DNA from: Octopus sinensis
Taxonomy: Eukaryota
DNA length: 64,000 bases
Assembly: GCF_006345805.1 (NCBI RefSeq)
Contig: NC_043000.1
Coordinates: forward strand, 101,680,001 to 101,744,000
Direction of reading: 5' to 3'
The notes beneath the pieces are model-generated. The model was given only the letters and a program-made list of their open reading frames with translations, was not told where the DNA came from and did no database searches. Below, piece by piece: positions 5,861 through 59,382 of the stretch (position 1 is its first letter; the number at the start of each line of letters is the position of its first letter). The position numbers and the translations under genes were made by a program.

Positions 5861-6282
5861 ATAAGGCAGTGAGCTGGCAGAAACATTAGCATGCCAGGCA
5901 AAATGCCTAGCGGTATTTCGTCTGCCGCTACGTTCTGAGTTCAAATTCTGCTGAGATCGACTTTGCCTTTCATCCTTTCAGGGTCAATTAAATAAGTACC
6001 AGGTACACACTGGGGTCGATATAATCGACTTAATCCGTTTGTCTGTCCTTGTTTGTCCCCTCTCTGTTTAGCCCCTTGTAGGTAGTAAAGAAATAGGCAT
6101 TTTGTCTGCCGTTACATTCTGAGTTCAAATTTCCGCCGAGGTCAACTTTGCCTTTCATCCTTTCGGGGTCGATAAATTAAGTATCAGTTATGCACTGGGG
6201 TCGATGCAATCGACTTAATCCCTTTGTCTGCCCTTGTTTGTCCCCTTTATGTTTAGCCCCTTGTGTGTAATAAAGAAATAAA
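5861..6282 (+). mobile_element. tRNA-derived SINE family A (Meta-domain-like core), body duplicated in tandem
   Basis: tggcagaaacattagc / gagttcaaattc Pol III boxes; core gtcgactttgcctttcatcctttcggggtcgataaattaagtaccag; body occurs twice (~5913-6095, ~6096-6280); TSD-like taacagttg on both sides. Confidence 0.85.
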
Positions 6283-6718
6283 AAAATAACAGTTGCTACC
6301 CAAGAAAAAATTGTTTTACACAGTGTAATAGAAAACGCTTTGTCCAAGGTGTTTTGCACAGTGAGATTGAACCCAAAATCACATGGTTCTAAAGTAAGAT
6401 TCTTAACCACATGGCCACAACTTATTGAAATTTAGCACACAATTTAAAAAACCCACTTTTGCTGAAGTTAATAGATATATATCCATGAATCCTATAATCA
6501 TCATTATAAGTAAAGTCTGATATACAGATGTAGGAAGAATATCTTGTATATCTATTGCTATTAGTTTATATATGTCCTCAAGTAGAATATCTAACAGAAC
6601 CTGTAATTCTATGTTTCTTTATTTAAATAAAATGGAAGAACAAAATAAAATTCCAGATCTTTAACATCAACCTTGCACTATTTAGTAACATACTTTATTT
6701 TGTTTTTCCTATTTCCAG

Positions 6719-6841
6719 GCTAGCATACTCAATATTAGTTGGTGGTGTTCTGAATTTCAAAGTCGAACATTTTCAAATGGTGAATGGATATTCAAATTTG
6801 TACTGGGGCTGGGGAGCAGAAGACGATGACATGGCTTACAG
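6719..6841 (+). CDS. Internal exon of a GT7-family beta-1,4-galactosyltransferase / beta-1,4-N-acetylgalactosaminyltransferase (B4GALT/bre-4-like)
   Basis: Polypyrimidine tract + tttccag acceptor, ag|gtaaga donor, 123 bp, phase 2/2. Translates [40 protein letters not shown](R), matching the GT7 signature GGV...NG(F/Y).N.YWGWG.EDDD...R. Confidence 0.95.
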
Positions 6842-6901
6842 GTAAGAAGACTTTTTAAAAATCTTTTTTTTTTGTTTCTTCTTTGATATGCTTTTTGCCT
6901 T

Positions 6902-7316
<415 letters not shown>

Positions 7317-28554: not shown

Positions 28555-29969
28555 AGTGTGTGTGTGTGTATTCATTTGTTTCCTGGTGCATCTATATCCA
28601 TCAATAAATATATTTGTTTTTCTATTTATGTAATTACCACTGTGTATATATATATATGTGTGTGTGTGTGTGGGCACATGCATGTCCATGTATGTTTGTG
28701 TGTGCATGTGTGTGTGTGTGTGTGTGTGTGTAGCTGCATGTGTATGTAAATACATTTGGATTATAAATCTGGTGCAGTACTGCTAAACCAAACCTTCTGA
28801 CTTAATCTTCTATGAATATATTTATTTTGTAAAAATATATCAAGTTTGCATCAAGCAGCATGGGGCATGAGGAATTTACAAATATCTGTTTCCATCTCTC
28901 AATCTCTCTCTCTTTCCCTCTCTTCCTCTTTCTCTCTCACTTTCTCTCCTCCTTATATATGTATGTGTGTGTGTGTTTATATATCTATATATAATGTATG
29001 TGTGCTGTATATGTAGATATATATTATCTATATATATAATATATATACATGTGTATAAATATATATGTACAAATGTATGTATATATATAAATGTACATAT
29101 ATATATATGCATGTGTGCATATATTATATGTTTATATATATATATATATATATATAATATAATATATATTATACATATATGCAATATAATATATATTATA
29201 TGCCACATATATATGTGTACAGATATGAACATATATATTTATATATATATATATATTCTATATATATATATATTTATATATTATATATATATATATATAT
29301 ATTATATATATTATATATATACATATATATATATCTATATATATATATAATATATATATACATGTGTGTGTATACACACACACTCACAGACAAATGTTCC
29401 TCCAGAACCACCCACCAACGTACAAAATTAGTTATTTTTATCATTCCTCATTATCTTTGTCTTCTTTGTCACTGTAATCATCACAACTGTGTTTTTAACC
29501 AACAATTTAAAATTCTCCATTTGTTGTTGTTGTTGTTGTTGATGGTGGTGGTGCCGATGTGTTCTCGAACACCATTATCTCTATGTTACTGTGTTGCAGA
29601 TAGTCTAATGATTAGTCTATCTCCATCAGTTAATATTGCTCAAAGTTAATATTACATCAGTTTACATTACTAAAAGAGAAAAAGCATACAAAATCACTTA
29701 AACATATCAATATGAACTCTAACCATAGCTGTGTGGTTAAGAATTTCACTTTGCATTAATCATTTAGTTCCTGTTTCAACCCCACTGCATGACACACTTT
29801 GTACTATAGTTTCAGATTAACCAACCCTCCTCAGTATCAGCATTTAATGTTCATTTTCCTTGCTGGCATGGGTTGGATGGATGAACAGGAGCTAGCAAAC
29901 CTGCGGACTACAACAAGCTTTCGTGTCTGCTTTGGCATGTATGTCTAATACCTTGCTGTTATTCTCTCT

Positions 29970-29971
<2 letters not shown>

Positions 29972-30002
<31 letters not shown>

Positions 30003-30200
30003 TTAATGTCTGTTTTCCTTGCTGACATGGGTTGGATGGTTTGACAAGAGCTAGTAAGGCCAGAGGTTGCACAAGGCGTCATTTTCTGTTCTGGCATGGT
30101 TTCTGCAGTTGGATGCCCTTCCTAATGCCAACCACTTTACAGAGTATACTGGTGGTGCACCAGTGCTTTTAATGTGGCACCAGCACAAGTGTATTCTCTA
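29972..30200 (-). mobile_element. Retroposon family C
   Basis: (CAT)n followed by reverse-complement core. Confidence 0.8.
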
Positions 30201-30291
30201 TATATGTATATTTCTGTGTGTGTGTGTGTGTGTGTATGTGTGTATTTCTATGTGTGTGTATTTCTATATGTATGTATGTGTGGGAGTATTT

Positions 30292-30528
30292 CTTATTTCT
30301 TTATTGCTCATAAGGCGCTAAACACAGAGGGGATAAACAAGAACAGACAAAGGGATTAAGTCAATTACATCAACCCCAGTGCATAACTGGTACTTAATTT
30401 ATCGACCCCGAAAGGATGAAAAGCAAAGTCAACCTTGGCAGAATTTGAACTGAGAACGTAACGGCAGACCCAAATGCTGCTAAGCATTTTGCCCAGCATG
30501 CTAACGTTTCTGCCAGCTCACCGCCTTC
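30292..30528 (-). mobile_element. SINE family A, full length
   Basis: Complete reverse-complement copy; TSD tg(g/a)gagtattt 30281-30291 / 30529-30539. Confidence 0.88.
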
Positions 30529-30730
30529 TGAGAGTATTTGTGTGTGTGTGTATGTGTGTGCATGTGTGCATATGCATGTCTAGTGCCAAAACCAGTTGAA
30601 TGTCCAGTCAGTCATGCCAATCCTCAGTGTCAAAACAGCCATGTCCAGTTATCTCTTTCCATGTGTGATGCTGGGGAAAACATAAACACAGATTGAGGGA
30701 CACAAGTTTATACCAATGTAAAAATTGATA

Positions 30731-30947
30731 AACTCTATGATCAAAAGTATTAGAACCACAAACTTCACATATTTCGAGAAGTATCACTGCTCAATCAGTG
30801 ATGACTTTTGGCTCAGCAACAACGTCTTTTTCATTCAATCTGCTAGAAATAGCAACCAAATGTCCGTCAATCAAACTCTCTCATCTTAAAAATTATATAT
30901 GTATGTGTGTGTGTGTGTTTATATATATATATAAATGTATGTGTGTG

Positions 30948-30988
<41 letters not shown>

Positions 30989-31169
30989 GTGTATAAATAT
31001 ATATGTACAAATGTATGTATATATATAAATGTACATATAATATATGCATGTGTGCATATATATATATGTTTATATATATATATATACACACACATATATG
31101 CATATATATATATATATATATGCACACATATATATGTGTACAGATATGAACATATATTTTATATATAAG

Positions 31170-31201
<32 letters not shown>

Positions 31202-32112
31202 TACATGTGTGTGTATACACACACACTCACAGACAAATGTTCCTCCAGAACCACCCACCAACGTACAAAATTAGTTATTTTTATCATTCCTCATTATCTT
31301 TGTCTTCTTTGTCACTGTAATCATCACAACTGTGTTTTTAACCAACAATTTAAAATTCTCATTTTGTTGTTGTTGTTGTTGTTGATGGTGGTGGTGCCGA
31401 TGTGTTCTCGAACACCATTATCTCTATGTTACTGTGTTGCAGATAGTCTAATGATTAGTCTATCTCCATCAGTTAATATTGCTCAAAGTTAATATTACAT
31501 CAGTTTACATTACTAAAAGAGAAAAATCATACAAAATCACTTAAACATATCAATATGAACTCTAACCATAGCTGTGTGGTTAAGAATATAATACTTTTGA
31601 TCATAGAGTTCTTCAAGATCAGAGCTAAACTAGGACTGAACAACAACAACAACAGTAATAACAACAAAAACAACCGCAAAAATACAATCATTACTATATG
31701 TGCTCTACACAGTAACCACTGTATACTATAGAATACATGAATCATCACTCAATAAGATAAAACTACATATAATCTATAATCAATGCTCAATACTATAACA
31801 CTGCTCACGTGGCAACAACAAAATGTTTCTTATTCTACGTGGTTGCCCAATAATATTACACAACACATACACACACACACCTCACAGGGCATCTATTCTA
31901 CACAGTCACCATCTGATAGAGAATACACTTGTGCTGGTGCCACATTAAAAGCACTGGTGCACCCAGTATACTCTGTAAAGTGGTTGGCATTAGGAAGGGC
32001 ATCCAACTGCAGAAACCATGCCAGAACAGAAAATGACGCCTTGTGCAACCTCTGGCCTTACTAGCTCTTGTCAAACCATCCAACCCATGTCAGCAAGGAA
32101 AACAGACATTAA

Positions 32113-32145
<33 letters not shown>

Positions 32146-32559
32146 AGAGAGAATAACAGCAAGGTATTAGACATACATGCCAAAGCAGACACGAAAGCTT
32201 GTTGTAGTCCGCAGGTTTGCTAGCTCCTGTTCATCCATCCAACCCATGCCAGCAAGGAAAATGAACATTAAATGCTGATACTGAGGAGGGTTGGTTAATC
32301 TGAAACTATAGTACAAAGTGTGTCATGCAGTGGGGTTGAAACAGGAACTAAATGATTAATGCAAAGTGAAATTCTTAACCACACAGCTATGGTTAGAGTT
32401 CATATTGATATGTTTAAGTGATTTTGTATGCTTTTTCTCTTTTAGTAATGTAAACTGATGTAATATTAACTTTGAGCAATATTAACTGATGGAGATAGAC
32501 TAATCATTAGACTATCTGCAACACAGTAACATAGAGATAATGGTGTTCGAGAACACATC
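30731..32559. repeat. Composite local duplication/inversion insertion (four flank-derived segments)
   Basis: 30731-30894 = rc(32803-32966); 30893-31587 = 28953-29744; 31589-31919 = 32945-33275; 31916-32559 = rc(29556-30201). Confidence 0.9.
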
Positions 32560-33329
32560 AACAAGGGCCAGACTGAACTGAAATAGCTACTAAGTTTGAT
32601 TTGATCAATTAAATCCTTGAAGGCATTGCCCCAGCATGGCCACAGTTCAGTCACCGAAACAATAAAAGGAATAAAATATTAAGTGAGATATAAATAACTA
32701 AGATGTCAGATATGATAGCAAAAAACACTTAGAGTAAAAATTGGAGCACTAGAGTTGTTAAAGAAGAACACAGAAGGAGAACATTATCCAATGTGTACTT
32801 TCAATTTTTAAGATGAGAGAGTTTGATTGACAGACATTTGGTTGCTATTTCTAGCAGATTGAATGAAAAAGACGTTGTTGCTGAGCCAAAAGTCATCACT
32901 GATTGAGCAGTGATACTTCTCGAAATATGTGAAGTTTGTGGTTCTAATACTTTTGATCATAGAGTTCTTCAAGATCAGAGCTAAACTAGGACTGAACAAC
33001 AACAACAACAGTAATAACAACAAAAACAACCGCAAAAATACAATCATTACTATATGTGCTCTACACAGTAACCACTGTATACTATAGAATACATGAATCA
33101 TCACTCAATAAGATAAAACTACATATAATCTATAATCAATGCTCAATACTATAACACTGCTCACGTGGCAACAACAAAATGTTTCTTATTCTACGTGGTT
33201 GCCCAATAATATTACACAACACATACACACACACACCTCACAGGGCATCTATTCTACACAGTCACCATCTGATAGTATAACACCTGTCACATTATACCTA
33301 GACACTCCATGCCAAACTTGCACCGACCT

Positions 33330-36544: not shown

Positions 36545-37125
36545 AGATGAGGGTAGCGAGGGTGGTGGGGACGGTAGGTAGTGATTGTAGTAACTGTAGT
36601 GGTGTTGATGGTGGTGAATGTGGTAAAGACGATGGCAAAAGTGATGGTGCTGCTGGTGGCGGCATTGGTGGTAGTGGTGGTGGTGATGGTGGTGGTGGCG
36701 GCGGCGGTAGGGGTATTGGCAGTGGTGATACTGGTGGTCGTGTTGGTGATAGCAATGGTAGTGGTGGTGGTGGTGGTGGTGGTGGTGCTAGGGGTATTGG
36801 CAGTGGTGGTACTGGTGGTTGTGTTGGTGATAGCAATGGTGGTGGTGGTGGTGGTGGTAATGTTGGTGACGGCGATGGTGTCGGTGGTCATGATAGTGGT
36901 GAAGGTGGTAATGGTGGTAACAGTTGTAATAGTAATGATGATGGGTGGTGTAGTTGTGATGTCATGTAAACGGAGGTGGTGGTAGCGATGGTGGTGGTGA
37001 TGGTGGTGATGGTAGGGTTGTGATAATGGTGGTGTTGGTGATGGCAGTGGCAATAGCATTGGTGGTAATGGTGGTGGTGGTGGTGGTGGTGGTGATGATG
37101 ATGGTGGTGGGGGTGGTGGCGGAAT
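36545..37125. repeat. (GGT)n-derived cryptic low-complexity tract with an ~81-bp internal duplication
   Basis: taggggtattggcagtggtg.tactggtggt.gtgttggtgatagcaatggt occurs at ~36708 and ~36789. Confidence 0.8.
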
Positions 37126-39939: not shown

Positions 39940-40735
39940 GGTAGTTGCCATGGTGATGGTGGTGGTAGAAGCTGTGGCTGTGGCAGTGGAAGCTGTGGTG
40001 GTGGAAGCTGTGGCTGTGGTGGTGAAAGCTGTGGTTGTGGCAGTGGAAGCTGTTGTGGTGGAAGCTGTGGCTGTGGTGGTGGAAGCTGTGGCTTTGGTGG
40101 TGGAAGCTGTGGCTGTGGTGGTGGAAGCTGTGGCTTTGGTGGTGGAAGCTGTGGCTTTGGTGGTGGAAGCTGTGGCTGTGGTGGTGGAAGCTGTGGCTTT
40201 GGTGGTGGAAGCTGTGGCTTTGGTGGTGGAAAGCTGTGGTTGTGGTGGGGGAAGCTGTGGCTGTGGTGGTGGAAGCTGTGGCTGTGGTGGTGGAAGCTGT
40301 GGCTGTGGTAGTGGAAGCTGTGGCTGTGGTGGTGAAAGCTGTGGTTGTGGCGGTGGAAGCTGTGGCTTTGATGGTGGAAGCTGTGGCTGTGGCAGTGGAA
40401 GCTGTGGTGGTGGAAGCTGTGGCTGTGGTGGTGGAAGCTGTGGTGGTGGTGGTGGAAACTGTGGCTTTGGTGGTGGAAGCTGTGGCTGTGGTGGTGGAAG
40501 CTGTGGCTGTAGCGGTGGAAGCTGTGGCTGTGGCAGTGGAAGCTGTGGCTTTGGTGGTGGAAGCTGTGGCTGTGGCGGTGGAAGCTGTGGTGGTGGAAGC
40601 TGTAGCTGTGGTAGTGGAAGCTGTGGCTTTGGTGGTGGAAGCTGTGGCTGTGGTGGTGAAAGCTGTGGCTGTGGTGGTGGTGAAAGCTGTGGCTGTGGTG
40701 GTGGTGAAAGCTGTGGCTGTGGTGGTGGTGGTGGC
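39940..40735. repeat. 21-bp minisatellite GGTGGTGGAAGCTGTGGCT(G/T)T
   Basis: Roughly 35-40 units with 15/21/24-nt variants; one +1 frameshift near 40230. Confidence 0.9.
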
Positions 40736-49619: not shown

Positions 49620-51575
49620 TGGCAGAAACCTAAAAATGCACTTACAATTTATTCTGAAATGTCTCGTATCTTCATATTTGTACATGCATAAAAGTTTGCA
49701 TGAATGCATACATATATAGAAAAGAAAATAAGGAACAAGAAGTTTAATCTTGGCCAATCAGCCATTTCCAAAGATATCAAAGAAAAATCACTGAATGTCA
49801 CCAAGGCATGTACCAGGTGCTTTTTTGGTGCTTTTTACAAAGATAGGCATTCATTCTAGAGAAAAATCTGGAGTGAAGGAAAAGAGTTTAATCAGGATGT
49901 CGAGTGATAAGGAGAAATACAAAAGAAATATTTCCCTTGTATTATGCCAAAAGAATACAGCTGCAATGGCAAGACTGTTGAGACTATAATCCCAAGACTT
50001 TCAGGATAGCAAAGTATCAGGAATAGACTTTATCTGATACTAGTACAAATGACATACTGTTATTAGTAGTATCTTATTAACCATTAGCAACAAGCTCTTA
50101 ATGGAGTTATAATCATACCAAGCTGGTTGGTGCTAGCTGGTTGCCAAAACAAAACAAATGCCCCACAGTAATGCCGCTCATGTGGTATAAAACTATTGAC
50201 TAATTGCATACCAGTATCTCCTTCATAAAATATAGTCAGCCTGTCCAAATGTATTTATCCAGAATCACTGTGATAATTGATTAAACAGTTAAGAAGAAAG
50301 GAGTTTGAGAATATGTTGAACAACTTTAACTATGATGCCGAAGATATTGTAGTTTGGATCACAACAAAGTATTGAATTCTGTTTCCTACTCATTGACACT
50401 AAAACGCCTTCAATTTGCTAAAGTTCCAGATACATTATCAGTGGGTAAACCAATCAGACTTTGCCCAAGGCAAACATCCTAAAGGTTAAAACATGAAGTA
50501 GTTTTATTATCACTGACACAATATATATTTCTTTACTACACACGAGGAGCTAAACACAGAGGGGACAAACAAGGACAGACAAAGGGATTAAATCGATTAG
50601 ATCGACCCCAGGGTGTAACTGGTACTTAATTTATCGAACCCGAAAGGATGAAAGGCAAAGTCAACCTCGGCGGAATTTGAACTCGGAACGTAACGACAGA
50701 CGAAATATGACTATGCATTTCGCCCGCCATGCTAACGATTCTGCCAGCTCACCGCCTTACATCACTGACAAAATATAGTACTGCAGGATATATTTCAAGG
50801 GAGCAACCTCACTATGATGCTATTTATACTTTCAATAAGTTCCTTTTTCTTTGTGTTAAGAAAATATGAAGGGTATGTAACTGACTCACAGGAAAACAGA
50901 AACACCAACCTCACACATGAACCCTTACCAGAAATATCCCTATGGACAGTAATATAGACTCTCTACTTAAAACAAAAACAAAATGGCTGAGGCTTAACAT
51001 TAATTCAAACAATATTTGAATGATTTATCAAACCCTTTTGATAACATCTACAAACCACAAAAAGTCGAAGTCCAGCCATGGATCAAGTCTATCTATGTAC
51101 ATAAAACTGACAGCATCATAGAGTTGGAAATAACCTTCTTCAGAAAGTATTTCCTGATTAATGACCAGAAATACATACCCTGATAATTTGTAAAACTCTA
51201 CCACAACAGAACATCAAAAGAAATGCTTTATACATATCAGCAGAAGGTCACATGCATGGCTGTGTTGCCAGAAAATTTCAAAGTAATGGCAACATAGATA
51301 ACCAAAGTACTCTGCACTGAACTAACAAGTGGGATATTAGCTCTAACTTCAAAGGGAGTGCATGCTTTTGCATTACAGGAAGAGGAAATAATCACAAAAT
51401 ACCTGATGCACAAAAGGGATAGGGGTGAAAGTAGACTACCAGATGTGACAATAGAGGTAGACTTTGTATAATTTACTCTGAGGATGTTAAGCACTTCATA
51501 AGTAGATGAACACAAGTGTCATCATAGTATTATCTGCCTATGAGGCTATATGATATGGCCCAAGCATTACACATT
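49620..51575 (+). mobile_element. Highly decayed R4/Dong-like (RLE-type) non-LTR retrotransposon
   Basis: Relic RT motifs LDHNKVLNSVSYSLTLKRLQFAKVP (~LDYKKAFDSVPH) and IFQGSNLTMMLFIL (~GIFQGDSLS); MHG...FALQEEEIITKYLMHKRD; relic CCHC RGRLC...EDVKHFIS...YYLPMR. 5' boundary uncertain. Confidence 0.7.
50526..50760 (-). mobile_element. SINE family A, full length, inserted in the R4-like RT
   Basis: 17-bp TSD atcactgaca(c/a)aatata 50509-50525 / 50761-50777. Confidence 0.9.
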
Positions 51576-51587
51576 GTTATTTCTCTA

Positions 51588-51712
<125 letters not shown>

Positions 51713-51953
51713 TCCGTTTTCAGTATGCAAAGGGACCATTTAAGGCGAATTCAAATTATTACATTATATAAAAGGGCTTAGTAAAATAAATTACTTTGCC
51801 GCATACTGAACTCGTTAGAAATAGCAGCTAAAAAAACTTTTTATAAAACTATTTCCAACACTTAAAGAAAACCTCTCTCATATAGTGTTTGCTCAATTCA
51901 ACTCAAGGAAGTATGGGGGTAGAGACATTAAAAAATCAAATGCAAAGGTTATT

Positions 51954-52006
51954 TGAGTACGTACGTTTCAAGATTAGTCAAAATCGACCCTTCTCTCATC
52001 GGCTCA
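51954..52006 (-). ncRNA. Minimal type-I hammerhead ribozyme (array copy 1)
   Basis: Reverse complement of the motif at 53323-53375. Confidence 0.75.
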
Positions 52007-52515
52007 GAATGCCCTTGTTTGAATTTGAAAACACTGAAAATGGGAGCATACCCTTTCGGCTTGTTATCGTTTCTGAAGATCTGCTCCAAACTAACAGTGC
52101 CAACAAACTCAAATATGCAAGCAAAGAATTTCTGCTCTCCCCTTTCCACCAGCGTGGGTTAAAATCAGCAACACTATGCTTTTTTCGGTAAAATCCGAGA
52201 CATTAAGTAGAGAGAGATGAATTATAATTTCAACAATTGAGGGTAAAATTAATTAATTAATTAATCAATTTCACCAAGTATTCAGTATGCAAAGGGACCA
52301 TTTAAGGCGAATTCAAATTATTACATTATATAAAAGGGCTTAGTAAAATAAATTACTTTGCCGCATACTGAACTCGTTAGAAATAGCAGCTAAAAAAACT
52401 TTTTATAAAACTATTTCCAACACTTAAAGAAAACCTCTCTCATATAGTGTTTGCTCAATTCAACTCAAGGAAGTATGGGGGTAGAGACATTAAAAAATCA
52501 AATGCAAAGGTTATT

Positions 52516-52568
52516 TGAGTACGTACGTTTCAAGATTAGTCAAAATCGACCCTTCTCTCATCGGCTCA
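52516..52568 (-). ncRNA. Minimal type-I hammerhead ribozyme (array copy 2)
   Basis: Same motif, +562 bp. Confidence 0.75.
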
Positions 52569-53322
52569 GAATGCCCTTGTTTGAATTTGAAAACACTGAA
52601 AATGGGAGCATACCCTTTCGGCTTGTTATCGTTTCTGAAGATCTGCTCCAAACTAACAGTGCCAACAAACTCAAATATGCAAGCGAAGAATTTCTGCTCT
52701 CCCCTTTCCACCAGCGTGGGTTAAAATCAGCAAACACTATGCTTTTTTCGGTAAAATCCGAGACATTAAGTAGAGAGAGATGAATTATAATTTCAACAAT
52801 TGAGGGTAAAATTAATTAATTAATTAATCAATTTCACCAAGTATTCAGTATGCAAAGGGACCATTTAAGGCGAATTCAAATTATTACATTATATAAAAGG
52901 GCTTAGTAAAATAAATTACTATTTACTATTACTATAAGTTGCTATTTCTAACGAGTTCAGTATGCGGCAAAGTAATTTATTTTACTAAGCCCTTTTATAT
53001 AATGTAATAATTTGAATTCGCCTTAAATGGTCCCTTTGCATACTGAATACTTGGTGAAATTGATTAATTAATTAATTAATTTTACCCTCAATTGTTGAAA
53101 TTATAATTCATCTCTCTCTACTTAATGTCTCGGATTTTACCGAAAAAAGCATAGTGTTTGCTGATTTTAACCCACGCTGGTGGAAAGGGGAGAGCAGAAA
53201 TTCTTCGCTTGCATATTTGAGTTTGTTGGCACTGTTAGTTTGGAGCAGATCTTCAGAAACGATAACAAGCCGAAAGGGTATGCTCCCATTTTCAGTGTTT
53301 TCAAATTCAAACTAGGGCATTC

Positions 53323-53375
53323 TGAGCCGATGAGAGAAGGGTCGATTTTGACTAATCTTGAAACGTACGTACTCA
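53323..53375 (+). ncRNA. Minimal type-I hammerhead ribozyme (array copy 3)
   Basis: TGAG-CCGATGA-GAGA ag GGTCG attt TGACT aa TCTT-GAAA-C GTAC G-TA|CTCA; predicted cleavage after A53371. Confidence 0.75.
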
Positions 53376-53885
53376 AATAACCTTTGCATTTGATTTTTTA
53401 ATGTCTCTACCCCCATACTTCCTTGAGTTGAATTGAGCAAACACTATATGAGAGAGGTTTTCTTTAAGTGTTGGAAATAGTTTTATAAAAAGTTTTTTTA
53501 GCTGCTATTTCTAACGAGTTCAGTATGCGGCAAAGTAATTTATTTTACTAAGCCCTTTTATATAATGTAATAATTTGAATTCGCCTTAAATGGTCCCTTT
53601 GCATACTGAATACTTGGTGAAATTGATTAATTAATTAATTAATTTTACCCTCAATTGTTGAAATTATAATTCATCTCTCTCTACTTAATGTCTCGGATTT
53701 TACCGAAAAAAGCATAGTGTTTGCTGATTTTAACCCACGCTGGTGGAAAGGGGAGAGCAGAAATTCTTCGCTTGCATATTTGAGTTTGTTGGCACTGTTA
53801 GTTTGGAGCAGATCTTCAGAAACGATAACAAGCCGAAAGGGTATGCTCCCATTTTCAGTGTTTTCAAATTCAAACAAGGGCATTC

Positions 53886-53938
53886 TGAGCCGATGAGAGA
53901 AGGGTCGATTTTGACTAATCTTGAAACGTACGTACTCA
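53886..53938 (+). ncRNA. Minimal type-I hammerhead ribozyme (array copy 4)
   Basis: Identical motif; predicted cleavage after 53934. Confidence 0.75.
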
Positions 53939-54447
53939 AATAACCTTTGCATTGATTTTTTAATGTCTCTACCCCCATACTTCCTTGAGTTGAATTGAGC
54001 AAACACTATATGAGAGAGGTTTTCTTTAAGTGTTGGAAATAGTTTTATAAAAAGTTTTTTTAGCTGCTATTTCTAACGAGTTCAGTATGCGGCAAAGTAA
54101 TTTATTTTACTAAGCCCTTTTATATAATGTAATAATTTGAATTCGCCTTAAATGGTCCCTTTGCATACTGAATACTTGGTGAAATTGATTAATTAATTAA
54201 TTAATTTTACCCTCAATTGTTGAAATTATAATTCATCTCTCTCTACTTAATGTCTCGGATTTTACCGAAAAAAGCATAGTGTTTGCTGATTTTAACCCAC
54301 GCTGGTGGAAAGGGGAGAGCAGAAATTCTTCGCTTGCATATTTGAGTTTGTTGGCACTGTTAGTTTGGAGCAGATCTTCAGAAACGATAACAAGCCGAAA
54401 GGGTATGCTCCCATTTTCAGTGTTTTCAAATTCAAACAAGGGCATTC

Positions 54448-54500
54448 TGAGCCGATGAGAGAAGGGTCGATTTTGACTAATCTTGAAACGTACGTACTCA
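54448..54500 (+). ncRNA. Minimal type-I hammerhead ribozyme (array copy 5)
   Basis: Identical motif; predicted cleavage after 54496. Confidence 0.75.
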
Positions 54501-55161
54501 AATAACCTTTGCATTTGATTTTTTAATGTCTCTACCCCCATACTTCCTTGAGTTGAATTGAGCAAACACTATATGAGAGAGGTTTTCTTTAAGTGTTGGA
54601 AATAGTTTTATAAAAAGTTTTTTTAGCTGCTATTTCTAACGAGTTCAGTATGTGGCAAAGTAATTTATTTTACTAAGCCCTTTTATATAATATATATATT
54701 ATATATATATATATATATAGATAGATAGATAGATAGATAGATAAACAGAGACAGAAAAAAGAAAGAAAGAAAGAAGCAAGCAAAGAAAGAAAGCAAAAAA
54801 TTTGTTTCCATTGGCTGTTTCAGCAGAGTAAAAACATCATCATTCATATAATTATTTAATTGACATCTGTAATTAATTAATTTAAATGTGATGGGTTACC
54901 CATCTCATCTGGAAAAAATGATGAAAATGGAAATAAAAATTCTGTTACTGTGTTAAATATGATATAAATAAGATTAAAAAAAAAAGACAGAGAATAATAT
55001 GATATGAACGCAATAGAAAGAAGAAAAAAGTACAAAGAACAATAAAACGTAGAGAGAGAGAGAGCAATAAAGACAAAAAGTAGGGGATGCACCTATACAC
55101 ACAGGTACTGATCCTACATATGCATAAGACTTTATTTCATCAATATTTGTTGTGGTGTTGT

Positions 55162-55380
55162 AAGGCTGCAAGCTGGCAGAAACATTAGCATGCTGGGCGA
55201 AATGCTTAGCAGTATTTCGTCTGTCTTTACGTTCTGAGTTCAAATTCCGCCGAGGTTGACTTTGCCTTTCATCCTTTTGGGGTCAGTGAATTAAATACCA
55301 GTTGCATACTGAGGTTAATCTAATTGACTAGCACCCTTCCCAAAAATTTCAGGCTTTGTGCCCTGATTAGAAAAGATTAT
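55162..55380 (+). mobile_element. SINE family A
   Basis: Head boxes and core. Confidence 0.85.
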
Positions 55381-55403
55381 ATTCATTTCAAGTTATACAT
55401 AAA

Positions 55404-55778
55404 ATCAAAATCAAAATCGATCAACATCAATGGAAATTGTAGCTGTGATACCAGTGCCAGTGGCACGTAAGAGAACCATCTGAATGTGGCCATTACCAGC
55501 GCCACCCCGACTGGCCTCTGTGCCGGTGGCACATAAAAAGCACCATCTGATTGTGGCTAGTTGCCAGCTTCGTCTGGCCCCTGTGCAGGTGGCAAGTAAA
55601 AAGCACTCACTACACTCATGAAGTGGTTGATGTTAGGAAGGGCATCCAGCTATAGAAACACTGCCAGATCAGACTGGGCCTGGCGCAGCCTTCTAGCTTC
55701 CCAGACCCCAGTTGAACCGTCCAACCCATGCTAGCATGGAAAACGGACATTAAACGATGATGATGATGATGATGATGA
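55404..55778 (+). mobile_element. Retroposon family C, long copy with internal gtgcc.gtggcac.taaaaagcac repeats
   Basis: Core plus (GAT)n tail; three internal subrepeats. Confidence 0.85.
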
Positions 55779-56252
55779 CATACAATGTAAATTGAAACTG
55801 AAGGATTACTTAATACTTTTAAGTAGAGCATATATTCATTTTAAGTTTTACAAGGAAAAGGTTGATAGTAACTTTGCAGGTTCAGCTAACTTGCCTTCAT
55901 TGGACAGCCAAATGAAGGCAGCCATGCATCACTTCTATTTCACGATACCTTTGCTTGTCCCTCTGTTATACTTTAGCCTTTCAACACTTAGCATAGAACC
56001 ACCACCACCACCACCATCCCTTGCAAATAAACTCCCATCAATGCACCTTGAAGTTCTTTTTTTGTTTTTTCTTGTTCTTTTTGTGTTTTGCTAGTTACTT
56101 GGCAATATGACTAGTGCTGGTGGCACCAAAAAAGCACCTGGTGCATGCTGTAAAGTAGTTGGCATTAGGAAGGTCACCCAGCCATAGAAACAATGCCAAA
56201 GCTGACACTGGATCTCAGCACAGCTCTGCAGCTCACTGGATCCTACCAAACC

Positions 56253-56337
<85 letters not shown>

Positions 56338-56341
56338 AAAC

Positions 56342-56875
56342 TGTTAAAAAGGACAACAAACGTTAAGGCAAGGCAAACATCTCAAGTCATATACATTATT
56401 ATTATTATTATTAGAAAACAATTCAAATCTTACAGCTGTTTCTGGGATATCCTAGATTTACTTCTAAATGATCAAAAAGTTGAATAGTGAACTTTTAAGC
56501 CTCTTTTTTCTTATCTTTGTTCATCTCATTCCTTTACTCCTGTCCTCTTTGTTGTCATTTCATTAATCTATACCATTCTCATTTTCCTTATTTGTCTACG
56601 ATGACAGAATATCCCATACTCTGGGATATTCCAGAAACAGCTGTAGGACTTTGAATTTTTTTTCCAATAATAATAATGTATAGGACTTGAGATGTTTGCC
56701 TTGCCCTAATGTTTGTTGTCTTCTGTAACAATTATAGATCCACTATATTGGAAATCTGCAATGGCTCCATAACTACTGTCTTGGCTATAACCTTGGTGCC
56801 CTAGTAATCTATTACAGCACCTACTTTGTGTACCTAGTCATTTAGATCACCTGTGAACTAAACCCCCATATTTTA
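56342..56875. mobile_element. Inverted-repeat element with hammerhead motif (Penelope-like, non-autonomous)
   Basis: Arms 56342-56456 / 56620-56730; HHR-like motif 56594-56649; flanked by (TA)n and (TG)n. Confidence 0.7.
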
Positions 56876-56961
56876 TGTGTGTGTGTGTGTGTGTGTGTGT
56901 TATGTACAGACATGCGTGCCATACATATATACATAAACACATACATACATACATACATACA

Positions 56962-57895
56962 TGAGGCTGATAACATCATAAGACTTGGAAAGCAGCTCCT
57001 TGAGCAGTGTTCTTTATCTCATAACCTTAAATACATGCCCAAAGAAGTTGCACAACTCTATTGCAACATATCAGATGACAGGATGAGTGTATATGAACAG
57101 AAAACCATGCATGGATATGATGGCAGAAAGCTCCGAGATGATAGTAACATTGATCATCAAAGCAGTCTGTCATGGACCAAAAGCTTGATTACTACCCCCA
57201 CTTTGAAGGGTATGTGATTGCAATCCAGGAACAGTAAATATCAACTAAATACCTGATTCACAAAAGGGACAGAGATGCAGGAAAAGCAGTAAAATGTGAC
57301 AACCTATGCACTGATGCAGACTTTGTGGAGTCAACACCAAAGATACCACCCACATTATAAGCAGTTGTCTGATGTAGCTAGGACACTGTATAACAAGATC
57401 CATCAGTAGGATAATCCTGAGGACAAAGAAATATGGTGGAAGTCATAGCCACTCATGATAAAAAGGAATACCGGTGGAATATCCCAGGGGAAACCTCAAT
57501 AAAATGTAAACACAATACACCTGATATAATGATTTAGGATAGAGAAGGCAAACTGTGTACAGTTGTGGAAGTCAGCTGCCCAACAGATGTTAAGATAAAG
57601 CTGAAGATCAGTGGAAAAGAGAATACCTACTCTGAACTATTGAGAAATCTGCAGTTACTTATCCAGATTACAAGTTCAGAAGTTTATCATTTAAGTATAT
57701 ATGAACATTTTTAAGTATTCAACTATATGCATGAGAATGCATACATAAAACAAAACATACAAATCTACACATATACAAACATACAAAAATACCTTTTTGA
57801 TGTTGTTGAAATTCCAATGAAGGAGCCTTGGATCTAGATTAGAAACCGACTCTATCTCTATCGGCAAGAAATCTTGAAATAAAACTGAATAATGA
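56962..57895 (+). mobile_element. 5'-truncated R4/Dong-like non-LTR retrotransposon (CCHC + restriction-like endonuclease)
   Basis: MHGY..RKLRDDSNIDHQSSLSW; FEGYVIAIQEQ.ISTKYLIHKRD; CRLCGVNTKDTTHIISSC; HNTPDIMI.DREGKLCTVVEVSCPTDVKIKLKISGKENTYSELLRNLQLLYPDYKF; (ATAC)n on both sides. Confidence 0.85.
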
Positions 57896-57932
57896 CATAC
57901 ATACATACATACATAAACACATGCATGTTAAT

Positions 57933-57986
<54 letters not shown>

Positions 57987-58510
57987 CTTGCTTTGACCAC
58001 ACACTGTTCCCTTGTTTGTTTTCACCAACATAAATGTAGTGAATCACCAATCGGCTCAGCTGGAAACTGCAGCAACCAGCAATTAAAATTATTGTTCACA
58101 TAGTGCGATCCAACCTAAAATCTAAAATAAATGAATACATCTATCTCTGGAATCTAACTTTCATTACAGGCATTACAATGTTTAATGAGTCTCTTTCTGA
58201 CTTAATTTTAGACTTTATATACAAAATCTCTTTTCACTTTTTTTATTTCTTAATTATTCACATTCAGTCATATTTTATAGTTTATACTTTAGAGAATTAT
58301 TTTAAGATATCTGCTTCTTTCTCTGTTTGTCTGTCTGTCTATATCTGTCTCTGTCTCTCACATATATAAATACATATACATACATGTATGCACAAGTGTG
58401 TGTGTGTGTGTGTGAATATATATATATATATATATATGTATAAATAATACCAAATGTTCTTTCTCAAACCTTTCATAATGTGATACAAGTCTTTGGTGTA
58501 GCAATTGCAT

Positions 58511-58602
58511 GCGGCTGAAGAGGGCTTTAAACTATCTGTTATGTCGATTATACATTGATGTAAGAATAAGTTGTTTTATAAAGCTCGAAACATGTGTACC
58601 GT
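58511..58602 (+). ncRNA. Minimal type-I hammerhead ribozyme with canonical core
   Basis: GCGG-CTGAAGA(58515-58521)-GGGCTTTA...TAAAGCTC-GAAA(58587-58590)-C ATGT G-TA|CCGT; predicted cleavage after A58598. Confidence 0.8.
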
Positions 58603-58823
58603 GACATCCTTTGTGTCCTGTTTTTTATTTCATTTGATACATATATCCTCTCACCTCTGCTACTAGCTGGCATATACAGGTGCTTACATTTATCAAGTAT
58701 TCACACTGAATTTATATATATATATATATATATATTTAATCATATCAAAGGGAAATGGAAATTAATAGAAATTTTCATTTCCAGTGGCCTAGCTTGTAAA
58801 AATTTAGTCCAAAGACTATGTAT

Positions 58824-59307
58824 TAGTCATAAAATACAGTGTACATTTAAGTACATAAAGAATCCACTCATGGGATTCAACACGCTAGAAAGAACAGCTA
58901 GGTTCTATAACCACAAAATTAGGGATAAAATTCGACAGGAATGAAATGAAAAAATAAAAACATTTTACCTTCTAATTTCCTGGACCAATTGGTTTCTGAT
59001 TTCAGTTTAGCAAGTAAATAACATTTACTCGCGAGGTGAAATCGTTTTCAACAGGGACACCTTAGATTTAAATATATAAATGCGAGGCTATCAACTATGT
59101 GCCTCTTGTTTATACATCCTGATTTTTTCAAAATCTACTGCGCAGGTCCAGGAAATTAGATGGTAAAATGTTTTTATTTTTTCATTTCATTCATGTCGAA
59201 TTTTATCCCTAATTTTGTGGTTATAGAACCTAGCTGTTCTTTCTAGCGTGTTGAATCCCATGAGTGAATTCCTTATGTGTTTAAATGTACACTGTATTTT
59301 ATGACTA
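58824..59307. mobile_element. Foldback element with 163-bp inverted arms and a decayed hammerhead in the spacer
   Basis: Arms 58824-58986 / 59145-59307 (few mismatches), TA at both ends; minus-strand CTGTTGA...GATTTCA/TGAAATC-a-GAAA-CCAATTGG-TC at ~58978-59058. Confidence 0.8.
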
Positions 59308-59333
59308 TACATATATATATATATTATATATAT

Positions 59334-59382
<49 letters not shown>

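Follow-up and report, generated by a model that had tools for sequence, protein, structure and literature searches.

How several dissimilar hammerhead-bearing elements came to share one inverted, TA-flanked architecture is the question raised by a stretch of 64,000 nucleotides (nt) of the Octopus sinensis genome (contig NC_043000.1, positions 101680001-101744000, in a genome of 2.72 Gb), referred to below as the window. Four families, A to D, are represented there; in A, B and C two arms are joined head to head, 5' to 5', and D is a single arm. Genome-wide, each family has two fixed 3' ends, e1 and e2, and in every pair with both ends at a family terminus one arm ended at e1 and the other at e2 (46/46; A 14, B 11, C 8, D 13). 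These head-to-head, 5'-truncated copies were probably made by a Penelope-type enzyme that primed one complementary DNA (cDNA) from each side of a break on the same RNA.

Positions given as q or as signed numbers are counted from the predicted hammerhead cut, +1 being the first base 3' of it, and the tail is the stretch from e1 to e2. The inverted elements and the single arm beside them comprise the following features, of which A to D are treated as families below; pLTR denotes the pseudo-long terminal repeat of a Penelope-like element (PLE).

51675-51709, no strand: (TA)n left of A, within a longer (TCTG)(TCTA)(TA) tract
51716-52920, minus: left arm of A, built from approximately 2.1 monomers (non-coding, 563 nt), with its 5' end at q163 and its 3' end at q242
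51958-52002, minus: type I hammerhead of A, whose CCGATGA core has the U4C change private to the locus
52520-52564, minus: A hammerhead, core CCGATGA
52921-52936, no strand: filler at the A head-to-head junction, 16 nt
52937-54694, plus: A right arm, about 3.1 monomers, 5' end q129, 3' end q198 (e1)
53327-53371, 53890-53934 and 54452-54496, plus: A hammerheads, three copies, core CCGATGA
54695-54719, no strand: (TA)n right of A, followed by (GATA)n
56253-56337, no strand: (TA)n left of B, tandem TA
56338-56456, minus: B left arm, 119 nt, -25 to +94, ending at e1, without the 5' half of the hammerhead
56458-56875, plus: B right arm, 418 nt, -190 to +235, 3' terminus e2; from a decayed PLE bearing Hydra-clade motifs, pLTR region
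56594-56649, plus: B hammerhead, whole motif, damaged core ACGATGA
58439-58716, plus: D single arm, 5'-truncated, ending at e2; putative pLTR region of a second Hydra-like PLE family
58515-58598, plus: D hammerhead, canonical CTGAAGA core, stem II region 65 nt
58716-58735, no strand: (TA)n between D and C, common to the 3' ends of both
58735-59144, minus: C left (long) arm, -160 to +253, ending at e2, part of a 484-nt non-coding monomer
58979-59055, minus: C hammerhead, U3-A8 core TTGAAAA at 59051-59045, predicted cut after 58983
59145-59313, plus: C right arm, beginning at the GTC of the predicted cut and ending at e1, no ribozyme
59314-59336, no strand: (TA)n right of C, tandem TA

The first-pass annotation of the window had described three inverted elements, ribozyme-sense on the minus strand in the left arm and on the plus strand in the right, with TA repeats at their outer ends, and a fourth hammerhead near 58511. 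This arrangement was borne out, the fourth hammerhead being the canonical motif of D. The families had also been called otherwise dissimilar, and A to D compared with each other gave no similarity beyond a 12-nt match and neighbouring insertions. The placing of ribozymes in the inverted arms held for both arms of A and for one arm each of B (right) and C (left), A being the only inverted element of the window with hammerheads in both. The start of C had been set at 58824, and the left arm was found to reach about 58735, some 90 nt further. Element A (51716-54694) carries five whole hammerheads, two minus and three plus, all with CCGATGA rather than CTGATGA, and its two arms are 99-100% identical. 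The B arms are about 80% alike, and the left one, truncated within stem II, retains the GAAAC...GTA half only.

Loci were sampled genome-wide as the best-scoring matches to window queries, 40 being scored per approximately 1600-2100 candidates or, for upstream queries, per 346-440. The sample came to 158 loci (A 17, B 58, C 28, D 55) with window copies in and duplicates out, the A sample being the window copy and all 16 other genomic places returned. Loci left out as duplicate or overlapping were L023 and L168 (B), L035 and L057 (C), and L138, L150, L152, L158 and L164 (D), and the A rows L098 and L099 were merged into one. Partner arms more than 300 nt apart, such as those of D locus L147, were not scored as a pair, and an end was scored as TA-flanked when (TA)4 lay within 20 nt of it.

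Sixty-seven of the 158 loci were head-to-head and one was tail-to-tail, with head-to-head and tail-to-tail counts of 15 and 0 among the 17 loci of A, 21 and 0 among 58 of B, 14 and 1 among 28 of C and 17 and 0 among 55 of D, the rest being single. One-armed loci accounted for 88/141 in B, C and D together (a majority of copies in B and in D, and half in C) and for 2/17 in A. TA repeats flanked 30/30 ends in A, 38/57 in B, 30/34 in C and 46/65 in D, against 5.0% of random window positions. Arm lengths in family A varied from 61 nt to approximately 9 kb with no fixed terminal repeat, and the inverted overlap between arms ranged from tens of bases to kilobases across the families. Orientation bias, TA enrichment and variable arm length had been put forward in the first-pass annotation as signs by which its proposal could be judged, and all three came out in its favour. 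The four families all show the insertion footprint of PLEs, that is 5' truncation, an adjoining inverted copy, a one-ended tail and a (TA)n bias.

The most informative feature had been missed earlier: the arms are unequal, one having a tail absent from the other, and they end at two fixed sites. The e1 and e2 ends were at q198 and q297 in A, +94 and about +235 in B, +156 to +168 and +253 in C, and about +50 and +122 in D, which gave tails of 99, approximately 140, approximately 90 and approximately 72 nt respectively, against approximately 35 nt in a Neptune-like PLE of the same genome. Single copies stopped at e1 or e2, and as sharply as paired copies. A common RNA structure at e1 or e2 was considered and set aside, as folds differ between families and AT-rich ends alone were common to them.

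The inner ends and junctions were examined for the relation between the two arms. Neither arm contained the other in 15 of the 46 pairs (A 4, B 3, C 3, D 5; tallied by hand from arm coordinates), and at B L011 and D L159 the arms have no overlap at all, since the start of the e2 arm lies 3' of e1. The A inner ends lay at a mean circular distance of 137 nt, compared with 141 nt expected if they were independent. Overlaps at 12 A junctions averaged 2.25 nt against 0.76 nt at random (P ~0.001; the overlaps were taken from BLAST ends and are hence approximate), and filler was present at 3/15 A junctions. At 11 variable sites the two arms of A differed in haplotype in 0/15 loci, for which the permuted mean was 8.9 and none of 100000 permutations reached 0. 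Changes private to a locus, G451A and T520C in the window copy and G399T in L107, were in every covering monomer of both arms. One of 30 A inner ends was within 10 nt of the cut, where 1.07 were expected, and family A arrays reach approximately 16 monomers; a cut linear monomer was therefore not the usual template. As a separate observation, one A-family arm in L238 terminates exactly at the cut and carries a reiterated 9-mer.

The first-pass annotation had proposed that both ends of a break in (TA)n prime cDNAs that are then joined centrally, and the variable inner ends and junction microhomology support this as the best model. An enzyme, which for the Anolis element is predicted to be a dimer, would cut both strands within (TA)n. 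Within the RNA, the AT-rich e1 would anneal to one DNA end and e2, which lies 70-140 nt downstream of e1, to the other, after which the two cDNAs would extend independently and be joined at their 3' ends through 1-5 nt of microhomology or filler. One-armed copies would represent extension of a single DNA end. The biochemical steps of the model follow the in vitro PLE results of PMC11167929. For A the template would likely be a circular monomer that hammerhead cleavage and ligation had generated and that was copied over several rounds, or else an uncut homogeneous multimer. A further proposal, which we hold tentatively and regard as possible rather than probable, is a twin rolling-circle form of target-primed reverse transcription in which an enzyme dimer on one circular retrozyme RNA cuts (TA)n on both strands and its two subunits have obligately different starts, each subunit circling that RNA. 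Most of monomer A is covered by contigs from four sequencing runs that are presumed, by guess, to be of RNA, and the end-to-start joints in those contigs also arise from tandem DNA.

The arrangement is comparable to twin priming in L1 elements, where a single RNA is primed from two DNA ends and the resulting cDNAs are linked through microhomology, which yields an inversion. In L1 the second primer lands at variable internal sites and little is duplicated, while the octopus elements have two fixed starts and arms that are for the most part duplicates of each other.

A number of results weigh against two-sided priming on one RNA. Thirty-one of the 46 pairs were nested and some were near-perfect palindromes (B L010, C L033). 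The window A copy is itself nested and departs from the rule of one e1 and one e2 end, its left end lying at the atypical q242 with six filler bases rather than at the family q297. Four of the 15 A loci had three or fewer sites comparable between arms, and a homogeneous source array or subsequent gene conversion could account for the common haplotypes. Empty sites were not encountered, and the double-strand break, target duplication and pre-existing (TA)n are presumptive. In vitro the ribozyme was dispensable for insertion and start sites were used without a strand difference (PMC11167929). The sample is non-random and skewed toward window-like copies, and the first D query by design pushes the main copy beyond e1. 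The PLE connection carries reservations of its own, in that A and C had no sequence similarity to any PLE end tested, Pfam gave no GIY-YIG match for the B endonuclease (its motifs were identified by eye), and a homologue search of that endonuclease among longer proteins returned 66 candidates, none significant. B and D are placed in the Hydra clade putatively, by their motifs.

Among the alternatives, the one that survives best also has both sides of the break primed but makes the ends unequal later, either through like starts followed by endonuclease (EN) resolution that trims one end, or through two RNAs of one source locus. It accounts equally well for the head-to-head bias, the non-nested arms and the common haplotypes, and the PLE tail has been ascribed to EN-mediated resolution (PMC8557442). 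In vitro, however, the limits of the tail are start sites of the reverse transcriptase (RT; PMC11167929), and later trimming does not sit well with single copies that terminate as sharply as pairs or with the e2 arms of B L011 and D L159, which halt just short of e1 as if a second complex had blocked the same RNA. We consider this explanation unlikely.

Slightly less likely still is self-priming as modelled in PMC3846280, where a palindrome lets a single cDNA, or else an antisense template, fold back and serve as its own template. Fold-back of a single cDNA demands that one arm lie wholly within the other, and it favours junctions that are nearly palindromic. The non-nested arms show that simple fold-back of one cDNA is insufficient; it is excluded for those 15 pairs and may still make a minority, as the nested pairs and a few palindromic junctions (B L010 and L012, C L033) are what it could produce and the window A copy is compatible with a 34-nt loop. 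Against it as a general origin, the spacing of the A inner ends fits independence, and fold-back offers no reason why the second arm should always stop at the other terminus.

Independent insertions into one TA tract, or later recombination or gene conversion that made and homogenised the arms, appear very improbable. Stacking of PLE copies within one TA tract does occur, as described below, but independent insertions are expected to give tail-to-tail or TA-separated neighbours, and the arms instead join 5' to 5' and mostly directly. About half of the pairs would be e1 with e1 or e2 with e2, and none of the 46 was, nor were mixed haplotypes found in any of the 15 A loci. It is hardly credible that the elements are DNA transposons whose ends are terminal inverted repeats and whose target duplications are TA, whether miniature inverted-repeat transposable elements (MITEs) or of the fold-back type: inverted ends and TA flanks agree with it, yet it is already refuted by the variable arm lengths, the ends are unequal, many loci are one-armed, tandem monomers and ribozyme cores are retained, and B and D join PLE coding sequence. 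It is equally hard to credit that the palindromes are long-read assembly artefacts. The near-identity of the A arms would suit this, and the window A junction was not bridged among the 32 of 8560 short-read contig pieces listed, but the flanking DNA is unique, the ends coincide with two fixed sites per family, the B arms have diverged to about 80%, and other strand-switch joints were present in short-read contigs of three samples at depths of 12-180, together with e1-(TA)n junctions.

PLE copies were observed to stack within single TA tracts at the D and C elements of the window and at L027, L051 and L238. In L238 a PLE fragment beside family A was considered as linked to it and rejected, (TA)n between them marking the two as independent.

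The question of what kinds of element carry this footprint was addressed first at the level of the ribozymes. A descriptor with a palindromic loop III and at most one core mismatch found six sites in 51.7-59.3 kb and none in each of 60 shuffles, and an Rfam scan of the window gave no hammerhead at E<=1, only microsatellite-driven microRNA matches. Cores in family A outside the window were CTGATGA or CTGAAGA in 66/66 cases. Family B had CTGATGA in 14/35 and CCGATGA in 10/35; family C had TTGAAAA in 13/20, CTGAAGA in 2/20 and U3-G8 forms in 3/20; and family D had CTGAAGA in 34/37. At the family level the motifs are real, with a CUGANGA core or its U3-A8 variant, GAAA, an NUH cut triplet and stems I-III, and they are predicted to be type I ribozymes. 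The covariation seen in the U3-A8 form is a described variant of PLE hammerheads (PMC4209133). For C, stem I stayed unpaired when the ribozyme was sought within the inverted arms or built on the words CTGTTGA and CCGGCGA close by, and the U3-A8 reading was taken instead. All four hammerhead elements are packed into 8 kb of the 64-kb window (51719-59313), a clustering noticed post hoc, and descriptor scans found no hammerheads elsewhere in the window, although TA tracts occur throughout.

The elements had all been taken in the first-pass annotation to be non-autonomous ribozyme RNAs, which fits A and C, both non-coding, and fails for B and D, which run into PLE coding sequence. Family A consists of non-coding tandem monomers with one type I hammerhead each (longest frame 111 aa) and is retrozyme-like. 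Family C, likewise of non-coding tandem monomers and retrozyme-like, had a longest frame of 134 aa, and its 484-nt period was evident in 2/28 loci (L034, L054). A search of A and C against PLE proteins by tblastn gave no match. An older A-related tandem array with 77% identity was seen among further hammerhead loci (L228, L243, L245, L285), which hold additional hammerhead families, some within inverted elements.

The 5' ends of family C were within 12 nt of the predicted cut in 6/27 non-window loci (L044, L045, L047, L051, L054, L056; about one expected if evenly distributed, counted by hand), as was the window end at 59145. Several of these ends retain 3-7 nt upstream of the cut, for which cleavage or stalling of the RT at the fold is proposed.

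Families B and D are the 3' ends of decayed protein-coding PLEs. Upstream of B lies a long 3' region and then a frame with CxCX5C, a YIG-type core, CxxC and CxH, followed by an Asn/Thr-rich stretch and RT remnants, and the window B arm matches such endonuclease/RT-linked copies at 73-86%. The RT remnants were collinear with endonuclease and pLTR in L314 and L315; an RT frame downstream of B in L316 was not counted as its own, since (TA)n separates the two. Because B runs upstream into PLE coding sequence, it is an ordinary 5'-truncated PLE copy, and with a coding body present neither B nor D is a retrozyme. The D copy L309 has, beyond e2, the RT motifs DKT, RWA (RW) and GLYRDD in broken frames, and no endonuclease was found in the D copies fetched. 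RT pieces of D were 34-49% identical to those of the Hydra-like B-linked loci and approximately 23% identical to Neptune-like RTs. Marks of the Hydra clade in section 11 of PMC8557442 are a C-terminal GIY-YIG endonuclease with a CxCX5C linker and CxxC/CxH and without CCHH, and DKT and RW motifs. Two further observations concern these families: in L278, L284 and L286 the 3' region of D includes a conserved, degenerate (TG/TA)n stretch exceeding 1 kb, and in B a long Asn/Thr-rich insert separates RT from EN, as in rotifer PLEs (PMC3846280).

The genome holds RT+GIY-YIG frames of 775-883 aa. A young Neptune-like PLE family was encountered at L241-L244 and L246, with an intact RT+GIY-YIG frame of 762-781 aa, an upstream frame of 479 aa, copies 98-99% alike, a minimal hammerhead of the U3-A8 type and the tail of approximately 35 nt mentioned above. 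In L241, positions 1-1153 and 5934-7091 form a direct repeat of at least 1.15 kb (the 3' end of the PLE itself with downstream flank) bracketing a full-length PLE. Neptune-like PLE ends and A to D had no similarity beyond neighbouring insertions. By tail length, A and C (99 and approximately 90 nt) sit closer to the Hydra-like families (72 and 140 nt) than to the Neptune-like one, which hints weakly at the driver. A C-related inverted element in L244 (6971-7629) is fused at its e2 end, with no intervening TA tract, to a full-length Neptune-like copy at the 5' end of the latter. That junction may be a nested insertion or a template jump, which would name the driver, and it points away from the hint of a Hydra-type driver.

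Other features of the window lie apart from these elements. Unique DNA at 29094-33275 is complexly rearranged, with 29556-30201 inverted at 31916-32559 (99.7%), 31589-31919 repeated at 32945-33275 (100%) and additional copies of 164-189 nt; templated insertions or an assembly artefact may be responsible. A broken coding fragment at 56958-57700 on the plus strand, with a related piece at 51098-51422, resembles the 3' end of a non-LTR (long terminal repeat) retrotransposon with a restriction-like endonuclease of the R4/NeSL type, judging from its translation rather than from a database. A 21-nt tandem array of 37 copies (39959-40728) and a GTG-rich array (36641-37119) are possibly low-complexity coding or satellite DNA.

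These elements are new families of known kinds. Inverted 5'-truncated copies, one-ended tails, a (TA)n bias and non-autonomous PLEs have been published (PMC8557442, PMC3846280, PMC2377424). Opposite-strand hammerhead pairs 100-700 bp apart are on record in Schistosoma and circular templates have been proposed (PMC4209133), and PLEs have been proposed as drivers of retrozymes (PMC7229834; Li, Clavereau and Pollet, bioRxiv 10.64898/2026.07.22.740005). B and D resemble Hydra-clade PLEs (Craig et al. 2021, PMC8557442) in endonuclease motifs (B), DKT and RW, a canonical hammerhead and (TA)n targets, and the inverted 5'-truncated copy and one-sided tail are drawn there for PLEs generally as they are found here. 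The tails given in the same source are 30-40 nt, compared with approximately 140 nt in B and approximately 72 nt in D. Its supplement lists an Octopus Hydra family with (TA)n insertion, Hydra-1_Obim, which was compared by description only. The long N/T-rich insert between RT and EN in B differs from the clade description, and strict pairing of one e1 with one e2 is unstated in the excerpts of that paper.

A and C are like the metazoan non-LTR retrozymes (Cervera and de la Pena 2020, PMC7229834; the 2026 preprint) in having non-coding tandem monomers with a GC content of 32-35% and one type I hammerhead with a palindromic loop III per monomer. Their monomers of 563 and 484 nt exceed the retrozyme range of 150-450 nt given there. 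Head-to-head arrays with two fixed internal ends are unmentioned for retrozymes in the text of those sources that was searched, where PMC7229834 has no instance of the word "inverted" and the preprint a single one, in its reference list.

For the Anolis Poseidon element, in vitro work (Frangieh et al. 2024, PMC11167929) describes both strands being cut and extended at an AT-rich target, as in the model above, and two internal RT start sites that bound the tail, with a predicted dimer, like e1 and e2 here. Inverted copies and the choice of start site per target are not addressed in the text of that study. Penelope copies of Adineta vaga and Drosophila virilis (PMC3846280, PMC2377424) have head-to-head pLTRs of variable size with an optional tail on one, as in the octopus, and their cis-acting pLTRs are mobilised in trans. 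They were explained by self-priming at a palindrome, whereas here most junctions are non-palindromic and a third of the pairs are non-nested. With older subscription PLE reviews (2005, 2006) outside the scope, the literature covered yielded no statement of obligate e1 and e2 pairing, of head-to-head retrozyme arrays, of non-nesting as an argument against self-priming or of tails of 70-140 nt.

The origin of the inverted copies and one-sided tail of PLEs is stated as open in PMC8557442, and the copying of retrozymes into DNA has been inferred from co-occurrence and hammerhead similarity only (PMC7229834, the 2026 preprint), as far as the excerpts of these sources go. In O. sinensis the ends of protein-coding PLEs and non-coding retrozymes carry the same footprint. 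This footprint predicts one e1 and one e2 start per target, a single template lineage per insertion and no need for a palindrome, predictions that are testable in the existing in vitro PLE system. It also calls for caution in annotation, as inverted TA-flanked repeats of this type are retroelements, which the first-pass annotation had expected to be mislabelled as MITEs. If the twin rolling-circle proposal is true, head-to-head arrays would preserve circular ribozyme RNAs directly as DNA, with Hydra-type enzymes as the copying agents, and an obligate pairing of e1 with e2 would account for the inverted pLTR and the tail in all PLEs.

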